This document shows positions 3,470 through 37,645 of a stretch of 64,000 nt of DNA, in pieces. Within the stretch, counting starts at the first letter, position 1. The number at the start of each line of letters is the position of its first letter. Below the pieces are notes generated by a model, which was not told the origin of the DNA, made no database searches, and worked only from the letters and a program-made list of their open reading frames with translations. The stretch lies in the NCBI GenBank assembly GCA_963422645.2, contig CAXXVO010000008.1, positions 512,001-576,000 of the forward strand, in the 5' to 3' direction. This DNA comes from Alphaproteobacteria bacterium (lineage in GTDB: Bacteria; Pseudomonadota; Alphaproteobacteria; UBA828). A program made the translations under genes and the position numbers.

Positions 3470-5515
3470 ATGGGCCGGCTCGCGTCCGATATCGGCGGCA
3501 CCTTCACCGATCTGGTCTACTTCGACGATGCGCAGGGCTCGCTGCGCACCGCTAAATCCCTCACCACGCCGGGGGACCTGACCCAGGGCGTGATCGATAC
3601 CGTCAAGCTCTCGGACCTCGCGCCCGACGAGGTGGATTTCTTCGTCCACGGCGGTACCACGGTCATCAACGCCATTACCGAGCGCAAGGGCGCCCGGACG
3701 GCGCTGGTCACGACCGCCGGCTTTCGCGACGTGCTGGAGATTCAGCGCGGCAACCGGCCGGACCTCTACAATTTACGCTTCGAGAAGGAGCGCCCCTTCG
3801 TGCCCCGCCTGCTGCGCTTCGAGGTGCGCGAGCGGGTGGATGCGGCAGGCAACGTGCTGCGGCCTCTGGAGAAGTCGGACCTCGGCCTCGTCGTCGCCCG
3901 CTGCCGGGAGGAGAAGGTCGAGGCGATCGCGATCCAATTCCTCCACAGCTACGTGGCACCCCGGCACGAGGCCGAGACCGCCGCCCATCTGCGGGAGCGC
4001 CTGCCGGGCGTGAGCATCACCGCCTCTCACGAGATCACCCGCGAGTGGCGCGAGTACGAGCGCGCCAACACGGCGGTGCTCAACGCCTACGTGCAGCCCA
4101 TCGTTCAGACCTACTTCGGCCAGCTGGAGCAGGCGCTGGGCGGTGCCGACATCCGCTGCGCCTGCGCCGCCATGCAGTCCAACGGCGGCACCACCAGTTT
4201 CTCATGGGCCAAGGAACACCCCATTACCCTCATGGAATCGGGGCCGGCGGCGGGCTGCAACGGCGCCGCCATCGTGGGCAACCTCTGCGACGAGCCCCGG
4301 GTCATCTATCTCGACATCGGCGGCACCACCGCGAAGTGCACCACCATCGAGGACGGCACGCCCAAGGTGACCACCGAGTACCGGCTGGAGTACAGCCGCA
4401 CCCAGTTCGGTTACCCGCTGCGCGTGCCGGTGGTGGATATCGTGGAAATCGGGGCGGGCGGCGGCTCCATCGCCTGGTTCGACAAGGCGGGGCACTTGAA
4501 AGTGGGGCCGGTCTCCGCCGGCGCCGATCCGGGGCCCGCCTGCTACGGGCGGGGCGGCACCGAGCCGACCGTGACCGACGCCAAGCTCATCACCGGCGTC
4601 ATCAATCCCACCAACTTCGCCGGCGGGCAGTTCGACCTCGACGAGGGCAAGGCCCGCGCCGCCTTGGAGAAGATCGCGAGCGGCCTGGGCGTTGACGTGG
4701 TGGAAGCGGCGGTCGCGGTCATCCGCACGGTAGAAGCCAACATGATCAACGCGCTGAAGCTGGTCTCGATCCAGCGCGGCCACGACCCGCGCGACTTCGC
4801 CCTGGTCGTGGGCGGCGGCGGTGGGCCCATGCACGGCGCTCCCTTGGGCCGCGAGCTCGGCGTGAAGGAGATCATCGTGCCGCTCTACCCCGGCCTCTTC
4901 TCCGCCTGGGGCATGCTGGCTACCGAGCCTCGGCGCGATTTCATGCAGACCGTGCTGCGCCGCGACGAGGAGGTGGAGGCGGGCGACGTGCGCGCGGTCT
5001 TCGCCGGCCTCAAGGAGGAGGCGGAGCGCTATTACCAGACCGACGCCCACATGGGGGAGGCGGAGATCGCCTACGAGGGCCGCATCGACCTGCGCTATCT
5101 GGGGCAGGAGCACCCGGTAACCGTGCTCGTGGACATCGAGGCCGCCGAGGTCGACTCAATTCTCGCAGCCTTCCACGACGCGCACGAGAAGACCTACACC
5201 TTCCGCCTCGACGACACCCCGGTCGAGTTCGTGACCTACCGGCTTACCGCGTCCGCCAAGGTCCCGCGGCCGGAGATAACGAGGCTTGCCCCGAACGGGC
5301 GCTCGATCGAGGCGGCAGCGCGGCCCGCGCGCATGGCCGATTTCGCGGAGGACGGGCGCCACGAGGCTGCGGTCTACGAGCGGGACCGGCTGCCGCCCGG
5401 CGCGGAGCTGGCTGGGCCGCTGATCGTGGAAGAGGCCACCGCCACCACGCTCGTGCATCCCGGCCAGACGCTCCAGGTCGACGACTACGGCTTCCTGCGC
5501 ATCACCGACGCCTGA
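3470..5515 (+). CDS. Hydantoinase A / 5-oxoprolinase family protein (intact copy)
   Basis: Starts MGRLASDIGGTFTD; HGGT, ESGPAAG, DIGGTT, SAGADPGPACYG motifs. Confidence 0.92.
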   Translation: MGRLASDIGGTFTDLVYFDDAQGSLRTAKSLTTPGDLTQGVIDTVKLSDLAPDEVDFFVHGGTTVINAITERKGARTALVTTAGFRDVLEIQRGNRPDLYNLRFEKERPFVPRLLRFEVRERVDAAGNVLRPLEKSDLGLVVARCREEKVEAIAIQFLHSYVAPRHEAETAAHLRERLPGVSITASHEITREWREYERANTAVLNAYVQPIVQTYFGQLEQALGGADIRCACAAMQSNGGTTSFSWAKEHPITLMESGPAAGCNGAAIVGNLCDEPRVIYLDIGGTTAKCTTIEDGTPKVTTEYRLEYSRTQFGYPLRVPVVDIVEIGAGGGSIAWFDKAGHLKVGPVSAGADPGPACYGRGGTEPTVTDAKLITGVINPTNFAGGQFDLDEGKARAALEKIASGLGVDVVEAAVAVIRTVEANMINALKLVSIQRGHDPRDFALVVGGGGGPMHGAPLGRELGVKEIIVPLYPGLFSAWGMLATEPRRDFMQTVLRRDEEVEAGDVRAVFAGLKEEAERYYQTDAHMGEAEIAYEGRIDLRYLGQEHPVTVLVDIEAAEVDSILAAFHDAHEKTYTFRLDDTPVEFVTYRLTASAKVPRPEITRLAPNGRSIEAAARPARMADFAEDGRHEAAVYERDRLPPGAELAGPLIVEEATATTLVHPGQTLQVDDYGFLRITDA

Positions 5516-5731
5516 CTAGGATTTCTCACAGGGCTACGACCTGCGTCGCGCGTGACGCAGGCAAGAGATGTTTGCTCGCTATACGCCGAATGGAAGGACG
5601 ATGACCGATGCCGGATAGCACTTCCCTCTTCGAGCGTGCCATTCCCCTGCTCGCCTCGCTGGATATCGGGGCCTCGCTCGACCACTTCAACAAGCTCGGT
5701 TTCGAAGCGCACAACTTCGGCGACAACTACG
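4423..5731 (+). repeat. 1309-bp direct repeat, copy 1 (abuts one end of IS1634)
   Basis: Matches 7655-8963 at offset 3232; both junctions fall exactly at the IS inverted repeats. Confidence 0.95.
5608..5731 (+). pseudogene. 5' fragment of VOC/glyoxalase gene cut by IS1634
   Basis: Matches the first 124 bp of 8840-9235 and ends at the IS terminus. Confidence 0.9.
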
Positions 5732-7654
5732 CCTGACTTCGACGGTTGATTCGCGTAAGTATTTGAAATTGGCCGGTTCTCATTTCCGGCCAGGCACTAC
5801 ATCCGGCGGCGCTGCGAGACCGGGCCGGGTTTCGTCGGCGGTCAGTCGAGCTGGTACGGGGTGATCGTCAGGGGCAGCCCCATGGTCGCATAGATCTGTT
5901 CCGCCGCCGGTGTCGGCTTGGAGGGGATGACGTAGCGGTTGCCTGATTGGCGGCAGCGCAGGACCGAGCATTGGCGGTGGACGAGGGCGGAGCGGATGAC
6001 TTCCGGGGACATCCGCCGCTTCTGGATGGCGACGCGGTAGGCGAGGTGGCGGACGCAGGCGAAGGCCATGAAGGCGATGGCGATGTGGGCGCGGATCCGG
6101 TCCGGGTTCCAGTGCCAGATGGGGCGCACCCGCAGGTCGTGCTTGGTGATCCGGAAGCTCTCCTCGACCTGCCAGAGCCCGTGGTAGTGAGACATCACTT
6201 CGGTGACGCTGGCGTCGCGCAGATTGGTGATGACGCCGGCGAGCCCGTCCCATCGCTCGGCCTCGGCGATCTTCTCCGGGTTCACCGTGAGCCGGGCTTC
6301 GCCCTCGACGGCGATGAAGCGCTTCGCCCCGTGATTGGAGAGCAGCTCCTTCGGATTGTCGCTGCGGGCCAGCCTGTCGAGCAGGCGCTCCACCTGCTTG
6401 CGGCGCTCGTGTGCGTCCGTGCGCGCGCGCACGGGGCAGAAGACGACGATCAGGCGCCGGCCCTTGTGCTCCCATTCGCCGACCCGGCGCTTCTCCGGGC
6501 CCTCCAGCGGGGCATAGGTGCCCGGGTCGAGAATCTGCTTCCGCAGCGCGAGCGGCAGCTTGCGCAGCCGCGCGCCGACGACGTACTCGCCGCCGATCGT
6601 GTCCATGGCGTCGAGGTTGTCGGCGCTCAGCATGCCCCGGTCGGCCACGCACACCGTGCGCTCCACCTGGTGGCGGCGCTGCATGTCCTGCAAGACCGGG
6701 ACCAGGCTGTGCCCCTCGTAGGTGGCGCCGGGAAAGACCTCGTAGCCGATCGGCAGCCCTTCGCGCGTCACCATCAATGCCAGCAGGACCTGCGAGTCCT
6801 TGTGCTTGCCGTCCTTGCTGAAGCCGTGCTGGCGAAGCTCGTCCTCAACCGCGGTCTCGAAGTAGAGCGTGGTGCAATCGAAGAAGAGGAGCGCGACCGG
6901 CTCCGGCAGCAGCGATCGGCTCGCCTCGCCCACCTGCGTGCGCAGACGCTCGATCACGGTCGCGCCGAGTTGGTCCATCATGCGGTAGACCTTCTCAAGG
7001 GGAAGGCTCACGCCGAAGTCCTCCTCGAGCCGGCGCACGCTGCCCCGCTTGCTGTCGGGGTTGGCGATGCGTGCCATCACCACGTGGAACAGCGCGTCGT
7101 GCGAGGCCCGGTAGCGCGATCGCGGCAGCAGCGCATCGAGGCCCAGCAGGCGGTACATCTCGCCGTAGACCTCGTGGACGCCAGTGATCAGGCGCTGCTC
7201 CTCTTCGAGTTGCTTGAGATCGACCGGGAGTTCCTGCTTGCCGTCGCCCTGGCGTCCGACGCGGATCACCTGGTCTGCGATCTTCTCGGGCGCAAACAGC
7301 AAAGGCTGGCGCTGGTCCTCCAGCTTCGCCTTGACGTACTCGCCGAGCTGCCTCAGGCGCTCGATCTCGTCCTCGTCCATGGCCACGCCGATGTGGCGAA
7401 CGATGCGCTGTCGGACCTTGCCGCCGTCGCGCACGGCCTCGACGAGCTGGACCGAGCGTCGCGGGCTGTTGGGCGTGGTCTTGATGCGAACGAACACGGG
7501 GAAAGTGTAGCGCGCGGCGGGGGTATCGACAACCACATATACCTACTAGGCACTACAAAGCGGCTTGACCGCACCGCAACTTCTAAGTCATTGTCTTTGC
7601 AGAAAACTCCAGACGGGAGATCAGCCAAAATCCGGCCCAACCGTCGAAGTCAGG
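5732..7654 (-). mobile_element. IS1634-family insertion sequence (1923 bp)
   Basis: Perfect 17-bp terminal IRs CCTGACTTCGACGGTTG (5732-5748) / CAACCGTCGAAGTCAGG (7638-7654); single DDE transposase. Confidence 0.92.
5842..7497 (-). CDS. IS1634-family DDE transposase
   Basis: Probable GTG start (VFVRIKTTPNSPR); FFDCTTLYFE, GFSKDGK, VADRGM, YHGLWQVEESFR..K..L..RPI.H motifs. Confidence 0.92.
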   Translation of the reverse strand: MFVRIKTTPNSPRRSVQLVEAVRDGGKVRQRIVRHIGVAMDEDEIERLRQLGEYVKAKLEDQRQPLLFAPEKIADQVIRVGRQGDGKQELPVDLKQLEEEQRLITGVHEVYGEMYRLLGLDALLPRSRYRASHDALFHVVMARIANPDSKRGSVRRLEEDFGVSLPLEKVYRMMDQLGATVIERLRTQVGEASRSLLPEPVALLFFDCTTLYFETAVEDELRQHGFSKDGKHKDSQVLLALMVTREGLPIGYEVFPGATYEGHSLVPVLQDMQRRHQVERTVCVADRGMLSADNLDAMDTIGGEYVVGARLRKLPLALRKQILDPGTYAPLEGPEKRRVGEWEHKGRRLIVVFCPVRARTDAHERRKQVERLLDRLARSDNPKELLSNHGAKRFIAVEGEARLTVNPEKIAEAERWDGLAGVITNLRDASVTEVMSHYHGLWQVEESFRITKHDLRVRPIWHWNPDRIRAHIAIAFMAFACVRHLAYRVAIQKRRMSPEVIRSALVHRQCSVLRCRQSGNRYVIPSKPTPAAEQIYATMGLPLTITPYQLD

Positions 7655-8747
7655 CGTGCCGGTGGTGGATATCGTGGAAATCGGGGCGGGCGGCGGCTCC
7701 ATCGCCTGGTTCGACAAGGCGGGGCACTTGAAAGTGGGGCCGGTCTCCGCCGGCGCCGATCCGGGGCCCGCCTGCTACGGGCGGGGCGGCACCGAGCCGA
7801 CCGTGACCGACGCCAAGCTCATCACCGGCGTCATCAATCCCACCAACTTCGCCGGCGGGCAGTTCGACCTCGACGAGGGCAAGGCCCGCGCCGCCTTGGA
7901 GAAGATCGCGAGCGGCCTGGGCGTTGACGTGGTGGAAGCGGCGGTCGCGGTCATCCGCACGGTAGAAGCCAACATGATCAACGCGCTGAAGCTGGTCTCG
8001 ATCCAGCGCGGCCACGACCCGCGCGACTTCGCCCTGGTCGTGGGCGGCGGCGGTGGGCCCATGCACGGCGCTCCCTTGGGCCGCGAGCTCGGCGTGAAGG
8101 AGATCATCGTGCCGCTCTACCCCGGCCTCTTCTCCGCCTGGGGCATGCTGGCTACCGAGCCTCGGCGCGATTTCATGCAGACCGTGCTGCGCCGCGACGA
8201 GGAGGTGGAGGCGGGCGACGTGCGCGCGGTCTTCGCCGGCCTCAAGGAGGAGGCGGAGCGCTATTACCAGACCGACGCCCACATGGGGGAGGCGGAGATC
8301 GCCTACGAGGGCCGCATCGACCTGCGCTATCTGGGGCAGGAGCACCCGGTAACCGTGCTCGTGGACATCGAGGCCGCCGAGGTCGACTCAATTCTCGCAG
8401 CCTTCCACGACGCGCACGAGAAGACCTACACCTTCCGCCTCGACGACACCCCGGTCGAGTTCGTGACCTACCGGCTTACCGCGTCCGCCAAGGTCCCGCG
8501 GCCGGAGATAACGAGGCTTGCCCCGAACGGGCGCTCGATCGAGGCGGCAGCGCGGCCCGCGCGCATGGCCGATTTCGCGGAGGACGGGCGCCACGAGGCT
8601 GCGGTCTACGAGCGGGACCGGCTGCCGCCCGGCGCGGAGCTGGCTGGGCCGCTGATCGTGGAAGAGGCCACCGCCACCACGCTCGTGCATCCCGGCCAGA
8701 CGCTCCAGGTCGACGACTACGGCTTCCTGCGCATCACCGACGCCTGA
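7655..8747 (+). pseudogene. Duplicated 3' half of hydantoinase A gene
   Basis: Translation matches the C-terminal 363 aa of 3470-5515; N-terminal half absent. Confidence 0.9.
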
Positions 8748-8963
8748 CTAGGATTTCTCACAGGGCTACGACCTGCGTCGCGCGTGACGCAGGCAAGAGA
8801 TGTTTGCTCGCTATACGCCGAATGGAAGGACGATGACCGATGCCGGATAGCACTTCCCTCTTCGAGCGTGCCATTCCCCTGCTCGCCTCGCTGGATATCG
8901 GGGCCTCGCTCGACCACTTCAACAAGCTCGGTTTCGAAGCGCACAACTTCGGCGACAACTACG
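7655..8963 (+). repeat. 1309-bp direct repeat, copy 2
   Basis: Matches 4423-5731; begins immediately after the IS IR. Confidence 0.95.
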
Positions 8964-9235
8964 GTATCGCCGTCCGCGAGCACATCGAGATCCACTTCTG
9001 GCTTTGCACGGACAAGAGCGTCGCCGAGAACACCTCCTGCTACGTCCGTGTGAACGACATTCGCGCGCTGCGCGCAGACCTCGCCAGACGCACCGACGTG
9101 GGCGAGGTCGTCGAAACCTCCTGGGGCATGGACGAACTCTATGTGTGGGACCCGACCGGCAGCCTGGTGAAGTTCGGTCAAGTGACGGACAGGCTGATCC
9201 GGGCGGAAGCCGTGAAAGAGGCGCCTTCGGACTAA
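8840..9235 (+). CDS. VOC / glyoxalase / bleomycin-resistance family protein (intact copy)
   Basis: 131 aa; AIPLL, SCYVRV.D, WGM.E.YV.DP.G.L.KFG pattern. Confidence 0.85.
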   Translation: MPDSTSLFERAIPLLASLDIGASLDHFNKLGFEAHNFGDNYGIAVREHIEIHFWLCTDKSVAENTSCYVRVNDIRALRADLARRTDVGEVVETSWGMDELYVWDPTGSLVKFGQVTDRLIRAEAVKEAPSD

Positions 9236-9350
9236 GGCGCGTCCGTCCTTGACGGATGCGCCACAGGCCGCGACCGCGGCCCGCCGCTAATGCGGCGCGC
9301 CCGCGCAGGCACCGGCCCTAGGCCGGCTGCCGTGAGCGACAAATAGCAAA

Positions 9351-9387
9351 AGCGTTTCCGTATGAATCGGAAACGCTCTAGATCGCG
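9351..9387. repeat. Short palindromic repeat, copy 1; possible terminator between convergent genes
   Basis: AGCGTTTCCG-TATGAAT-CGGAAACGCT-CTAGATCGCG; near-identical to 55637-55676. Confidence 0.7.
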
Positions 9388-35885: not shown

Positions 35886-37645
35886 CGGTGTCGCACTGGC
35901 ACGAAGACCTCGCCGCCCGTAACGAGGCCTTCTGCTGCCTGAAGGAGCTTCTCGAGCCATCATCCCTCGCAACCACTGTCGTCGTTGCCGTCCGGGAATG
36001 GGGGCAGGGGCTGCTGCGATCAGCCACCGCGCTCGCCCGGGAAAATGCCGCACTCGAGCAGGAGAACGCGGCCCTGCGCGAGCGCATCGCCGAACTCGAG
36101 CGCAGCGCGGCCCTCAACAGCACCACAAGCAGCAAGCCCCCCGCCAGCGACGGGCTCAAGAAGAAAAGCGGAGCCCAGAGGCGCACCCAAAGCCAGCGCG
36201 GAAAGTCCGGCGGGCCCAGTGGCGGCCAGCCCGGCCACAAGGGAACCACCCTCGCGCGGAGCGACAGCCCGGACCGTGTCGTCGATCACCACCCCTCCAC
36301 CTGTTCCGGCTGTGGCGTCGAGCTCTCGGACGCCGACCGGCAAGGCGCGCCCGCCTGTCGGCAGGTCTTCGACGTACCCGAGCCGCAGCCTCTCGAGGTC
36401 ACCGAACACCGCGCCCATCGCTGCCTCTGCGGCGCATGCGGCACGCTGACACGAGCCGCCTTCCCGCCGGGCGTCACCGCCCCGGTCCAGTACGGCCCTC
36501 GCATCACCGCTTGGGTGAGTTACCTGCTGTACGCCCAGTTCGTGCCCGAGAAGCGTCTGGCCGAACTCATGAGCGACATCTTCGCGGTGTCCATCTCCAC
36601 TGCCACGATCGCCGCCATGGGCCGGCGCACAGCGCAGCGCTTCGAGGGCTTCCTCGACCATGTCGCCGATCTGATCCGCACGCAGGCGCCGGTCAAGCAC
36701 CTCGACGAGACCGGCCTGCGTATCGCCGCCCGTACCCGCTGGCTCCATGTGCTGTGCACCCCGTTGCTCACCGTCCTGCGCATCGGCGAGGGACGCGGCG
36801 ATGTCGAAAAGAACCTGAAAGGCATCCTCGTCCACGACGACTTCGCCCCCTACTTCACCATCAAGGGCGTCCGCCACGGCGCCTGCAACGCACATCACCT
36901 GCGCGAACTCCAGGCCCTGATCGACATCGAGAAGGAGGAATGGGCGGCGAGCATGCACCGCCTGCTTCAGCGCGCGCTCAGCGGGTACGTCCAGGATCTC
37001 GGGCGCGGGCATCAGCCCTCGCCCTCGTCGAGGCCTGCGTCGCCGGAGAGGCGGGCGGAGAATGCGGTGCGGCGGAGGCGGCGGGCGATGCGGTCTGCGT
37101 TCATGTCCTCCCAGAGCTGGCGCTCGTCGAGCGCGGCACGGAAGAAGCAGCCGACGGCGGAACTCAGGAGGGAAGTCAGGGACCTCCAGGATGTCCGCGA
37201 CATCGTCAGGGCCAGCCGCAGGGAGACGCCCAAGCACTGCCGGGCCGGCGACCTCGACGAAGCCGAGCAGCTCGATGCCTTGCCCGCGCGCGAGCGCCTC
37301 CTCCTCGACGTCATCCGGATGATCGCCTACCGCGCCGAAACCCGCATGATGCTTCCCGTCATGCAGGCGCAGGGCCACAAGCCCCATCCCCGGAAACTGC
37401 TTCAAGCGCTGCTCACCGCCGATGCCGACATCCTGCCGGATCCTGGCAATGGCCTCCTGCGGGTCCACATTCTTGGCCTCGCAAACGACGCCTGCGACCG
37501 TTGGATCGATGCGGTTCTGAGCGACCTGAACGCCACCGAAACGGTCTTCCCCGGCACCCGTCTGCGCATAGTCTACGACATCGACGGGGCCTCGGAATCC
37601 GCGCGGCTCGTGTCACCTAAAATCAGCAGAGGTCAGGAAGTCTGA
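35882..37645 (+). pseudogene. IS66 TnpC truncated at 36977 and fused in frame to a foreign segment ending in another transposase-like C-terminus
   Basis: Matches copy 1 up to 36977; lacks the TNNEAER segment; 667-bp insert replaces 383 bp. Confidence 0.8.
37160..37645 (+). mobile_element. 3' end of an unrelated putative transposase/IS (unclassified)
   Basis: D.IRMIAYRAET...ADILPD...LN.TET.FPGT.LR.VY, ending GQEV* exactly at the junction (GGTCAGGAAGTCTGA); family recognised from memory; left boundary approximate. Confidence 0.55.

Follow-up and report, generated by a model that had tools for sequence, protein, structure and literature searches.

We analysed a window of 64,000 nucleotides, the whole stretch of DNA considered here. 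An intact hydantoinase/oxoprolinase A-type gene was located at 3470..5515 on the + strand, with Pfam matches to PF05378 (Hydant_A_N), PF01968 (Hydantoinase_A) and PF19278 (Hydant_A_C) and a caprolactamase-alpha-like NCBIfam match under the cut-off; the ATG at 3470 was the sole in-frame start near the domain. The 3' 1094 nt of this gene lay inside the left copy (4423..5731) of a direct repeat whose right copy occupied 7655..8963. The two copies were 1309 bp each and 100% identical, and this perfect identity over 1.3 kb rules out a chance repeat. The nearest other similar sequence in the genome was one 75% identical paralogue on a separate contig, and there were no further ones.

An insertion sequence (IS) of 1923 bp filled the interval between the two copies (5732..7654), and its transposase of 564 aa was encoded on the - strand at 5842..7536. 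Inverted-repeat and direct-repeat searches showed 17-bp terminal inverted repeats at 5732..5748 (CCTGACTTCGACGGTTG, transposase-stop side) and 7638..7654 (transposase-start side). The inverted repeat as detected was 20 nt long and 100% complementary (5729-5748 / 7638-7657), with 17 nt belonging to the element and 3 nt representing a chance extension into the flanks. The borders of the repeat coincided to the base with those of the element, which starts at 5732 and ends at 7654; an earlier sequence-only reading of the window had described this 1309-bp duplication abutting 17-bp inverted repeats, and it proved exact. If the G at 7654 is left out of the element, the repeat becomes 1310 bp (4422-5731 = 7654-8963). 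We preferred 1309 bp, with this G as the last base of the element, because 9/9 genomic copies end in ...CAGG.

A small intact ORF of 131 aa was found in the ORF list at 8840..9235 (+), and the 92-nt spacer 5' of it lay within the right repeat copy. It showed sub-threshold BLMA-family matches, with 49.6 bits for the NCBIfam bleomycin-binding (glyoxalase-fold) model, whose cut-off is 140, and a Pfam search gave no match. In empty sites of relatives this ORF is contiguous with the hydantoinase gene. The left repeat copy carried, at 5608..5731 (+), a truncated 5' fragment (124 nt) of the same glyoxalase/bleomycin-binding-like ORF, which runs into the element and whose first 30 nt equal the intact ORF start at 8840. 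The right copy carried, at 7655..8747 (+), a 5'-truncated duplicate of the hydantoinase A gene that retains the C-terminal 363 codons, and its Pfam matches begin at position 116 of the Hydantoinase_A profile.

Loss of a gene requires both breakpoints to lie within it; the two breakpoints in the window fall in different genes, so both genes survive. The sequence-only reading had claimed an intact hydantoinase A upstream, which the Pfam domains and the ATG at 3470 bear out, and an intact "VOC gene" downstream, where the intact ORF stands and the VOC identity comes only from sub-threshold NCBIfam matches. It had also proposed that such insertions could be non-disruptive and duplicate genes. The insertion was indeed non-disruptive at the window locus, but not in general, since both breakpoints fell inside one ORF in 3/9 genomic insertions and split the gene. 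Likewise, truncated duplicates were made, but no whole gene was duplicated at the window locus or at the longest duplication found in a relative (1318 bp).

Family assignment of the element

The transposase matched PF01609 (DDE_Tnp_1) with 53.4 bits (cut-off 23, E 3.8e-14, residues 238-491) and the IS1634-family equivalog model NF033559 with 346 bits (cut-off 100, residues 41-555), which upholds the family named at first sight of the sequence. The IS4, IS701, IS1182 and IS1380 models all remained under their own cut-offs, and a search of solved structures with the transposase sequence gave 0 hits at E up to 1. A table in PMC2266710 lists a length of 1500-2000 bp and the terminal consensus C-----YT for the IS1634 family. 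The 1923-bp element with its single 564-aa ORF falls within this length, and both of its ends, CCTGACTT, fit the consensus. The terminal core GACTTCGACGG was kept across the wider clade described below.

The family norm is a target of "5 to 6 bp AT-rich tracts", as PMC2266710 words it in its entry on the family. The present element departs from this norm, with target-site duplications (TSDs) of 46-1318 bp in 34/34 copies from this genome and its close relatives. Long TSDs do not bar membership of the IS1634 family, because IS1634 and IS1549 are already accepted exceptions in the same source (PMC2266710), and long repeats that vary from copy to copy, the behaviour of these two elements, were found here as well.

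Insertions in the genome and its relatives

The genome contained 9 copies of the element, which were 99.95-100% identical, had the same ends and showed 9 different duplication lengths between 85 and 1309 bp. Codon 58 of the transposase was Ile in the window copy and Leu in the 8 other copies. Seven of the nine copies had exact flanking repeats (1309, 751, 376, 279, 228, 133 and 85 bp). The remaining two had exchanged flanks that cross-matched over exactly 478 bp (the left flank of one copy against the right flank of the other) and 187 bp (the reverse pairing). On the evidence of these matches, the exchange is best explained by IS-IS recombination that followed two long-TSD insertions. The same genome is rich in other repeats: the end of a different IS occurs about 97 times, and a ~2.5-kb element is also present in many copies.

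A 92-93% identical element was present in three congeners (G008, G009 and G011), and 25/25 examined copies had flanking repeats of 46-1318 bp: 22/22 in G009 among the matches listed, 2/2 in G008 and, in G011, the only full copy. Of these repeats, 20 were exact and 5 were near-exact or shifted by 1-2 nt, and some had diverged to 96.9-99.8% identity between copies. We combined the 9 genomic and 25 congener copies into a close set of 34 copies, which we counted as 32 independent events because two locus pairs (L021/L023 and L121/L122) have common flanks; copies within one genome and in related genomes are not fully independent. The 32 events had a median length of 230 bp, and 7/32 were above 514 bp.

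Unduplicated empty sites were found for three events. G005 (94% identity) and G009 (90%) each carried the window segment once and uninterrupted, and overlapping matches showed one copy only of the 376-bp segment in at least 9 congeners. The 751-bp segment lay inside another multicopy IS, whose intact copies carry the segment once. The sequence-only reading had read the window repeat as a giant TSD, and the long flanking repeats at 9/9 genomic and 25/25 relative copies agree with this reading, as do the empty alleles that it had proposed to look for. Short or absent TSDs at other copies, which it had named as evidence against itself, did not appear in the close set, where the shortest repeat was 46 bp. 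These comparisons support the view that long duplication would be the usual insertion mode of this element and not a one-off accident.

We then extended the comparison to a wider clade (transposase 45-96% identical). The results showed that 44/60 complete elements had repeats of 16-814 bp, comprising 40 anchored repeats and 4 accounted for by reciprocal flank swaps, while junction inspection and anchored matching detected no repeat, long or short, at the other 16/60.

The edges of the duplications shared a weak target signature, 5'-G/C|A-purine, in mirror orientation at both ends. Among 128 boundaries of 64 events, A was found at +1 in 92 (binomial p 1e-28), G/C at -1 in 102 (p 3e-6) and a purine at +2 in 109 (p 2e-16). 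The AT content was 0.52-0.55 in the first 10 nt within the segment versus 0.42 in the flanks, and five additional exact G009 events all began with A and ended with T. The duplication lengths followed a log-normal distribution around a geometric mean of 162 bp (n=75; Shapiro p 0.92 on log10), with 23/75 events below 100 bp. A Rayleigh scan of the lengths over periods of 9-12.5 bp (n=66) revealed no helical phasing; the best Z was 2.2-3.8 and was matched by jittered controls in 21-84% of trials.

Two further candidate features of the target were rejected. Promoter targeting was not apparent in the clade, where a TANNNT hexamer lay within 10 nt of either boundary in 5-6/64 events versus 3-5/64 at control positions 200 nt off. 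End-target microhomology had been suggested by repeats that seemed to continue for 3 nt into the element, but this effect was a product of a one-mismatch scoring rule; of it, the preference for G at -1 alone holds.

Origin of the long duplications

Taken together, the repeats, borders and empty sites indicate that the 1309-bp repeat is very probably a genuine TSD that arose by insertion of this IS1634-family element. The symmetric signature, the log-normal lengths and the lack of helical phasing suggest that two separate, sequence-selective strand transfers took place and that gap repair followed. In such a process, the two 3'-OH ends of the element would join opposite target strands at two independently chosen sites, each consisting of 5'-G/C|A-purine followed by ~10 AT-enriched bases. 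A distance of tens to over 1300 bp, with a 5' stagger, would separate the two joins, and the interval would be copied on both sides by host repair or by strand-displacement synthesis that starts at the two free 3' ends of the target. Events with a 3' stagger would give no simple insertions, which may account for duplications alone being seen.

Each boundary resembles half of the short AT-rich target typical of the family, so that recognition of the half-site seems to be kept while the spacing of the active sites seems not to be fixed. A rigid complex that traps a loop of protein-free DNA is hard to reconcile with the absence of helical phasing and the many repeats below 100 bp; a flexible or sequential attack of the second end close to the first join would fit the lengths. 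Beyond two distant staggered joins and repair, we infer the mechanism, including polarity, order and host factors, from products that survived selection. A stronger statement, which we regard as evenly balanced between true and false, is that each transposon end in this clade still recognises its normal half-site (5'-G/C|A-purine and a stretch rich in AT), whereas nothing any longer governs how far apart the two strand transfers fall; a single transposition could then duplicate anything from ~16 bp to at least 1.3 kb.

We weighed other origins of the repeat against this evidence. Two short-TSD insertions in the same orientation, 1.3 kb apart on sister chromosomes, could give the order segment-IS-segment after unequal crossing-over. 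IS-IS recombination is real in this genome and its relatives, as the reciprocal flank swaps show, and at one locus the product would be indistinguishable from that of a single insertion. Two insertions could even place the signature exactly at both outer segment edges, but they would not explain its universality: the same recombination would be needed at all 34 copies, whose minimum repeat of 46 bp leaves the required short-TSD precursor absent, and no short TSDs were found among the 16 repeat-less elements of the wider clade either. This origin is therefore very improbable. An assembler could also have doubled the flanks around a multicopy repeat, and the abundance of repeats in the genome described above would favour such an artefact.

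The public read data bear on this last point. We examined short-read contigs of four public runs (X1, X15, X18 and X19). The contigs broke at the element ends, and none extended 31 nt or more to either side of a junction (5731/5732 or 7654/7655), so that neither junction was bridged. In X1 and X18 a contig crossed 8963/8964, and the segment depth was about equal to the flank depth. In X15 one contig ended exactly at 5731 and the next began at 8934 (~30 nt before 8963), with a segment depth of ~1.45x the flanks. These contig ends fit an assembly-graph branch at the segment end, which is a weak hint only against an artefact. The X15 depth pattern might reflect a polymorphic insertion; the contig depth was only 5-28x, and we did not count it as evidence. 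Other runs, labelled as sponge or reef metagenomes, had only small shares (0.14-0.23), and we make no habitat claim from them. Against an artefact stand the same architecture in several separate assemblies and organisms (including G008, G009 and G011), the repeats at distant members of the family on plasmids of cultured strains (48 bp in Rhodococcus and 58 bp in Actinomyces), and the divergence of some repeats, which would not be expected of a doubled flank. We consider misassembly exceedingly improbable.

A variant of the mechanism concerns the substrate of the joins. Instead of intact duplex, the transposase could attack a replication fork, a single-strand gap such as those between Okazaki fragments, or an interval opened after the first join; how long the repeats are would then depend on the host intermediate and its size, not on how far the transposase can reach. 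The log-normal spread up to 1.3 kb, the lack of periodicity and the 23/75 events below 100 bp would suit such a substrate and are hard to match with looping of a stiff duplex. However, the sequence preference is equal at both boundaries and lies on opposite strands, which two equivalent transposase joins on duplex DNA fit at least as well; we judge this variant unlikely.

Significance and comparison with known systems

TSDs normally have a fixed length of a few bp, which the geometry of the transposase complex dictates. IS1634 and IS1549 already provide examples of long variable repeats, and what is new here is the wider range, up to 1.3 kb. Long duplication in 34/34 close-set copies, and 75 natural events when the wider clade is included, constrain any model, which must meet the symmetric preference at both distant joins, the log-normal lengths and the lack of helical phasing. 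In such genomes, long perfect repeats beside an IS should not be taken for misassembly or recombination scars. Insertions of this kind can spare both interrupted genes, as they do here, yet leave behind truncated gene copies and 1.3-kb repeats on which recombination can later act. If control of distance has been lost, elements of this clade would routinely generate tandem duplications of segments, promoters and gene fragments in a single step in IS-rich genomes, and, with 75 natural events known, these elements would be the best available system for the origin of long TSDs. A cloned active copy would offer a simple system for uncoupled strand transfer.

The closest known systems are IS1634 of Mycoplasma mycoides subsp. 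mycoides SC and IS1549 of Mycobacterium smegmatis, for which the 2008 review gives long variable direct repeats of 8-514 bp and, in its passage on them, notes the lack of any proposed mechanistic model (PMC2266710). The "tens to a few hundred bp" given in the sequence-only reading agree with these figures (PMC2266710). The present element shares with IS1634 and IS1549 the transposase family by HMM, one long DDE transposase gene, a size of ~1.9 kb and length-variable flanking repeats. It differs in its close-set range of 46 to 1309 and 1318 bp, against 8-514 bp in that source (PMC2266710). One recent IS1549 insertion, as described in PMC10066036, made a 13-bp duplication, which is shorter than any in the close set. 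The hosts also differ from those of IS1634 and IS1549, being GC-rich (67%) Proteobacteria known only from assemblies. In a limited literature search, we found no report of TSDs beyond 514 bp for such elements.

Short-TSD members of the family offer a second comparison. ISGka5 of Geobacillus kaustophilus gave a 6-bp repeat in the transposition recorded in PMC8024623. Elements of this type have the family and an AT-rich target beside the joins in common with the present element, but they keep their two joins a constant half helical turn or so apart, whereas the spacing in the present element varies freely across two orders of magnitude. Among distant plasmid members (transposase 28-32% identical; 5 loci examined of 125 matching records), 2 had repeats of 48 and 58 bp, 1 had a repeat of 4-6 bp and 2 were without a clear repeat. 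The 4-6 bp repeat, with a TAAC core, belonged to a Sulfitobacter plasmid element (28% identical), whose termini are ACCCAAGTTCGACAG, in contrast to the CCTGAC-type termini of the long-TSD elements, a difference drawn from very few elements.

The IS4 family (IS50/Tn5 and IS10) shares the Pfam domain DDE_Tnp_1 with the present transposase, which scored 47 bits against the NCBIfam IS4 model (cut-off 115). IS4-family transposases act by 3'-OH attack on staggered target phosphates, and the chemistry is presumably the same here. The IS4 family nevertheless makes fixed duplications of 8-13 bp, as listed in the table of PMC2266710, whereas those of the present element are long and variable.

The element and its repeat at the window locus

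We compared the two flanks of the insertion sequence and found 1310 bp of identity between positions 4422-5731 and 7654-8963. The G at 7654 could be assigned either to the start of the repeat or to the end of the element. Because all nine copies of the element in the source genome (G000) share the terminus ...GTCAGG regardless of the sequence that follows, the element was placed at 5732-7654 (1923 bp), between exact 1309-bp repeats at 4423-5731 and 7655-8963. Both repeat copies abut the element, whose termini are perfect 17-bp inverted repeats, CCTGACTTCGACGGTTG, bearing out the coincidence noted in the sequence-only reading.

The sole long ORF of the element, at 5842-7536 on the minus strand, encodes a 564-aa transposase with a DDE_Tnp_1 domain (Pfam). 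It scored 346 bits on the NCBIfam IS1634-family model (cut-off 100) and fell under the cut-off of all four sister models (IS4, IS701, IS1182 and IS1380). Element length, single ORF and terminal bases C-----YT also agree with the family description in PMC2266710, and the assignment to the IS1634 family was thus upheld. Among 72,556 plasmid records searched, the closest transposases reached no more than 32% identity, and almost every match listed carried the annotation 'IS1634 family transposase'. A sequence search for solved structures of the transposase detected none.

The left edge of the repeat lies inside a hydantoinase A-type gene (3470-5515, start codon at 3470, assigned by Pfam domains), and the right edge lies 124 nt into a 131-codon ORF, intact at 8840-9235. 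On the left, the hydantoinase gene is therefore whole and the small ORF is reduced to a stump, while on the right the hydantoinase copy lacks its 5' part and the small ORF is whole, together with its upstream spacer of 92 nt. A gene is lost only if it contains both breakpoints; here they fall in two genes, so both survive, as the sequence-only reading had stated. The small ORF that it named a VOC gene is intact there but only weakly similar to bleomycin-binding/glyoxalase-fold proteins (49.6 bits against a cut-off of 140), and a Pfam search of the ORF gave no match.

The 1318-bp case in a congener (G008) had the same outcome, with a 467-aa gene intact on one side. A GC3-based ORF screen of the source genome placed both breakpoints in one ORF at three of nine events (376, 751 and 228 bp), so those ORFs are split; insertion without disruption, as first proposed, holds at the window locus and not in general. 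Neither kilobase-scale case (1309 or 1318 bp) duplicated a whole gene; both left truncated duplicates together with long direct repeats.

At loci L004 (G008) and L005 (G017), compared with window 8748-9377, the downstream region directly follows the hydantoinase gene and the small glyoxalase-like ORF is absent, indicating that this ORF is a variable insertion/deletion within the genus. A hydantoinase A paralogue at G000:C13:80651-81736 is 75% identical to the duplicated segment, and each congener has several such paralogues at 66-77% identity. Directly downstream of the small ORF, at 9237-9382, lies a dispersed repeat of about 145 bp, perhaps a REP- or MITE-like element, of which G000 has 39 copies measuring 120 bp or more and congeners have many at 82-91% identity.

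Long repeats at other copies and unduplicated sites

The source genome (5.9 Mb, 23 contigs, 67% G+C) contains nine copies of the element. Eight are mutually identical, and the window copy differs from them by a single base change (codon 58, Leu to Ile in the window copy). Exact direct repeats of 1309, 751, 376, 279, 228, 133 and 85 bp abut the element ends in seven copies. The remaining two have no repeat of their own and have exchanged flanks: the 478 bp left of copy one exactly match the 478 bp right of copy two, and the 187 bp left of copy two exactly match the 187 bp right of copy one. Homologous recombination between two copies, each with a long duplication, would leave this pattern. Resolving the swapped flanks as two long target-site duplications (TSDs) therefore gives long duplications in all nine insertions. 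At G000:C8:44783-44805, a lone 23-nt sequence with no element attached matches the transposase-start-side end (17-nt inverted repeat and six further bases); it may be the remnant of a deleted copy.

A 92-93% identical element was found in three of 20 other searched genomes of the genus (G006 held only a fragment), and we examined every listed full-length copy: 22 in G009, two in G008 and one in G011. Exact flanking repeats were present in 20 of these 25 copies, with lengths of 46, 66, 84, 101, 113, 118, 137, 138, 151, 175, 178, 217, 233, 258, 339, 426, 439, 664 and 978 bp in G009 and 1318 bp in G008. The other five had repeats with small blemishes: 572 bp with a single mismatch, 608 bp exact but one base off the element, the G008 counterpart of this 608-bp insertion with repeats 96.9% identical, 250 bp with repeats 98.8% identical, and a second copy of the 217-bp locus in which the first six bases differ. 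Since two locus pairs share flanks, this close set represents 32 independent events (median 230 bp, range 46-1318 bp, seven above 514 bp), placing the 1309-bp repeat in the upper tail of a continuous distribution, below its maximum.

The insertion common to two species, L021 in G009 and L023 in G008, has a 100% identical element, a right flank 99.8% identical and a left flank only 96.8% identical, which accounts for the 3% divergence of the 608-bp repeat copies in G008. The pattern resembles the outcome of recombination or transfer in which the breakpoint lay within the element or close to it.

Unduplicated sites were found for the 1309-, 376- and 751-bp events. In two other species of the genus, G005 (94% identity) and G009 (90%), left flank plus repeat and repeat plus right flank fall on one continuous stretch, the 1309-bp segment is single-copy, and the hydantoinase gene continues directly to the small ORF. 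At least nine congeners have such a site for the 376-bp event, with matches to the two flanks that overlap by 370-377 bp. In the 751-bp event the target was a different element, about 2.5 kb long and very abundant, whose intact copies contain the segment a single time.

Two ordinary insertions close together could, through unequal crossing-over, give the same segment-element-segment picture at a single locus. This route cannot account for the long repeats at all 34 of 34 copies, none of which is a short-TSD precursor. Public short-read contigs over the locus end at the element's borders. Misassembly of the flanks is excluded in practice, as the same architecture occurs in separate assemblies and in finished plasmids, and some repeat copies have diverged in sequence. 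The long repeats at all 34 close-set copies, together with the empty sites, support the reading of the 1309-bp repeat as a giant TSD.

The source genome is heavily loaded with IS elements. The 2.5-kb element, one copy of which was struck by the IS1634-family element with duplication of 751 bp, has a very large number of near-identical copies, and its full-length matches, dozens in all, are spread across most contigs; it was seen at L106:1621-2500 and 4424-6808 (G000:C15), and a 526-bp fragment lies at about window 37121-37645. Adjoining one IS copy, at G000:C15:325316-325632, is a stretch of about 317 bp with about 97 genomic matches (99-100% identity). This stretch forms the end of an abundant IS, which may be the 2.5-kb element, and 104 bp of the stretch lie inside the 187-bp duplication.

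The wider clade and the target boundaries

A scan of species-representative genomes gave 75 loci, mostly in metagenome-assembled Alpha- and Gammaproteobacteria, with transposases 36-96% identical (45-96% where the element is complete). Several record titles include names such as Candidatus Poriferihabitaceae and Candidatus Spongiihabitans. The terminal-repeat core GACTTCGACGG is kept throughout, and a pair of ends with this core defined 60 complete elements. End-anchored direct repeats of 16-814 bp were present in 40 of these, and four formed two pairs with reciprocal flank swaps (79 and 107 bp; 114 and 334 bp). Junction inspection and an anchored-match search found no repeat, long or short, in the other 16. 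Of five distant family members examined on plasmids of cultured bacteria, two have repeats of 48 bp (Rhodococcus) and 58 bp (Actinomyces), a third has an ordinary 4-6 bp repeat (Sulfitobacter), and two have no clear repeat. On the Rhodococcus sp. DMU1 plasmid, the left terminal repeat of such an element occurs twice (L105:3718 and 3888, 170 bp apart), both pairing with a single right end, which may reflect duplication of the left end or a second, partial insertion.

We read 128 boundaries of 64 events from outside to inside on the strand giving 5' to 3'. Left and right boundaries showed the same pattern: G or C at position -1 (102/128, binomial p 3e-6), A at +1 (92/128, p 1e-28) and a purine at +2 (109/128, p 2e-16), with AT making up 0.52-0.55 of the first 10 nt inside the segment and 0.42 of the flanks. 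Five further exact G009 events agreed. The shared pattern indicates that, on its own strand, each transposon end joined on the 5' side of an A, and both join sites appear to be picked by the same rule, facing each other across the segment. The usual family target is described as an AT-rich tract of 5-6 bp in PMC2266710, and each long-TSD boundary looks like half of such a target.

Repeat lengths were log-normal (n = 75, geometric mean 162 bp, SD 0.40 log10 units, Shapiro p 0.92). A rigid complex capturing a loop of stiff duplex should produce phased lengths and steer clear of very short intervals. Such a complex fits worse, because no helical periodicity of about 10.5 bp was found (n = 66) and 23 of the 75 repeats were shorter than 100 bp; flexible or sequential attack by the second end fits better, as does a target that replication or repair has opened. 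We infer two spatially uncoupled strand transfers with a 5' stagger, after which fill-in or strand-displacement synthesis would cross the interval. Joins with a 3' stagger would give no simple insertion, and the lack of the opposite polarity may be survivorship. Promoter targeting was tested and not found in this clade.

Comparison with IS1634 and IS1549

Long, variable direct repeats of 8-514 bp are the described peculiarity of IS1634 and IS1549, according to the review PMC2266710, which also states that a mechanistic model had yet to be proposed. No reports of repeats above 514 bp or of a mechanism were found in the literature searched, which leaves their absence unproven. This study adds long TSDs with complete penetrance, in every close-set copy examined, a clade with conserved termini in GC-rich Proteobacteria, and a symmetric half-site signature and length distribution for long TSDs. 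Compared with IS1634 and IS1549, the range of the element is about 2.5-fold wider, up to 1.3 kb. The phenomenon is known; its scale, regularity and mechanistic constraints here are new and testable.
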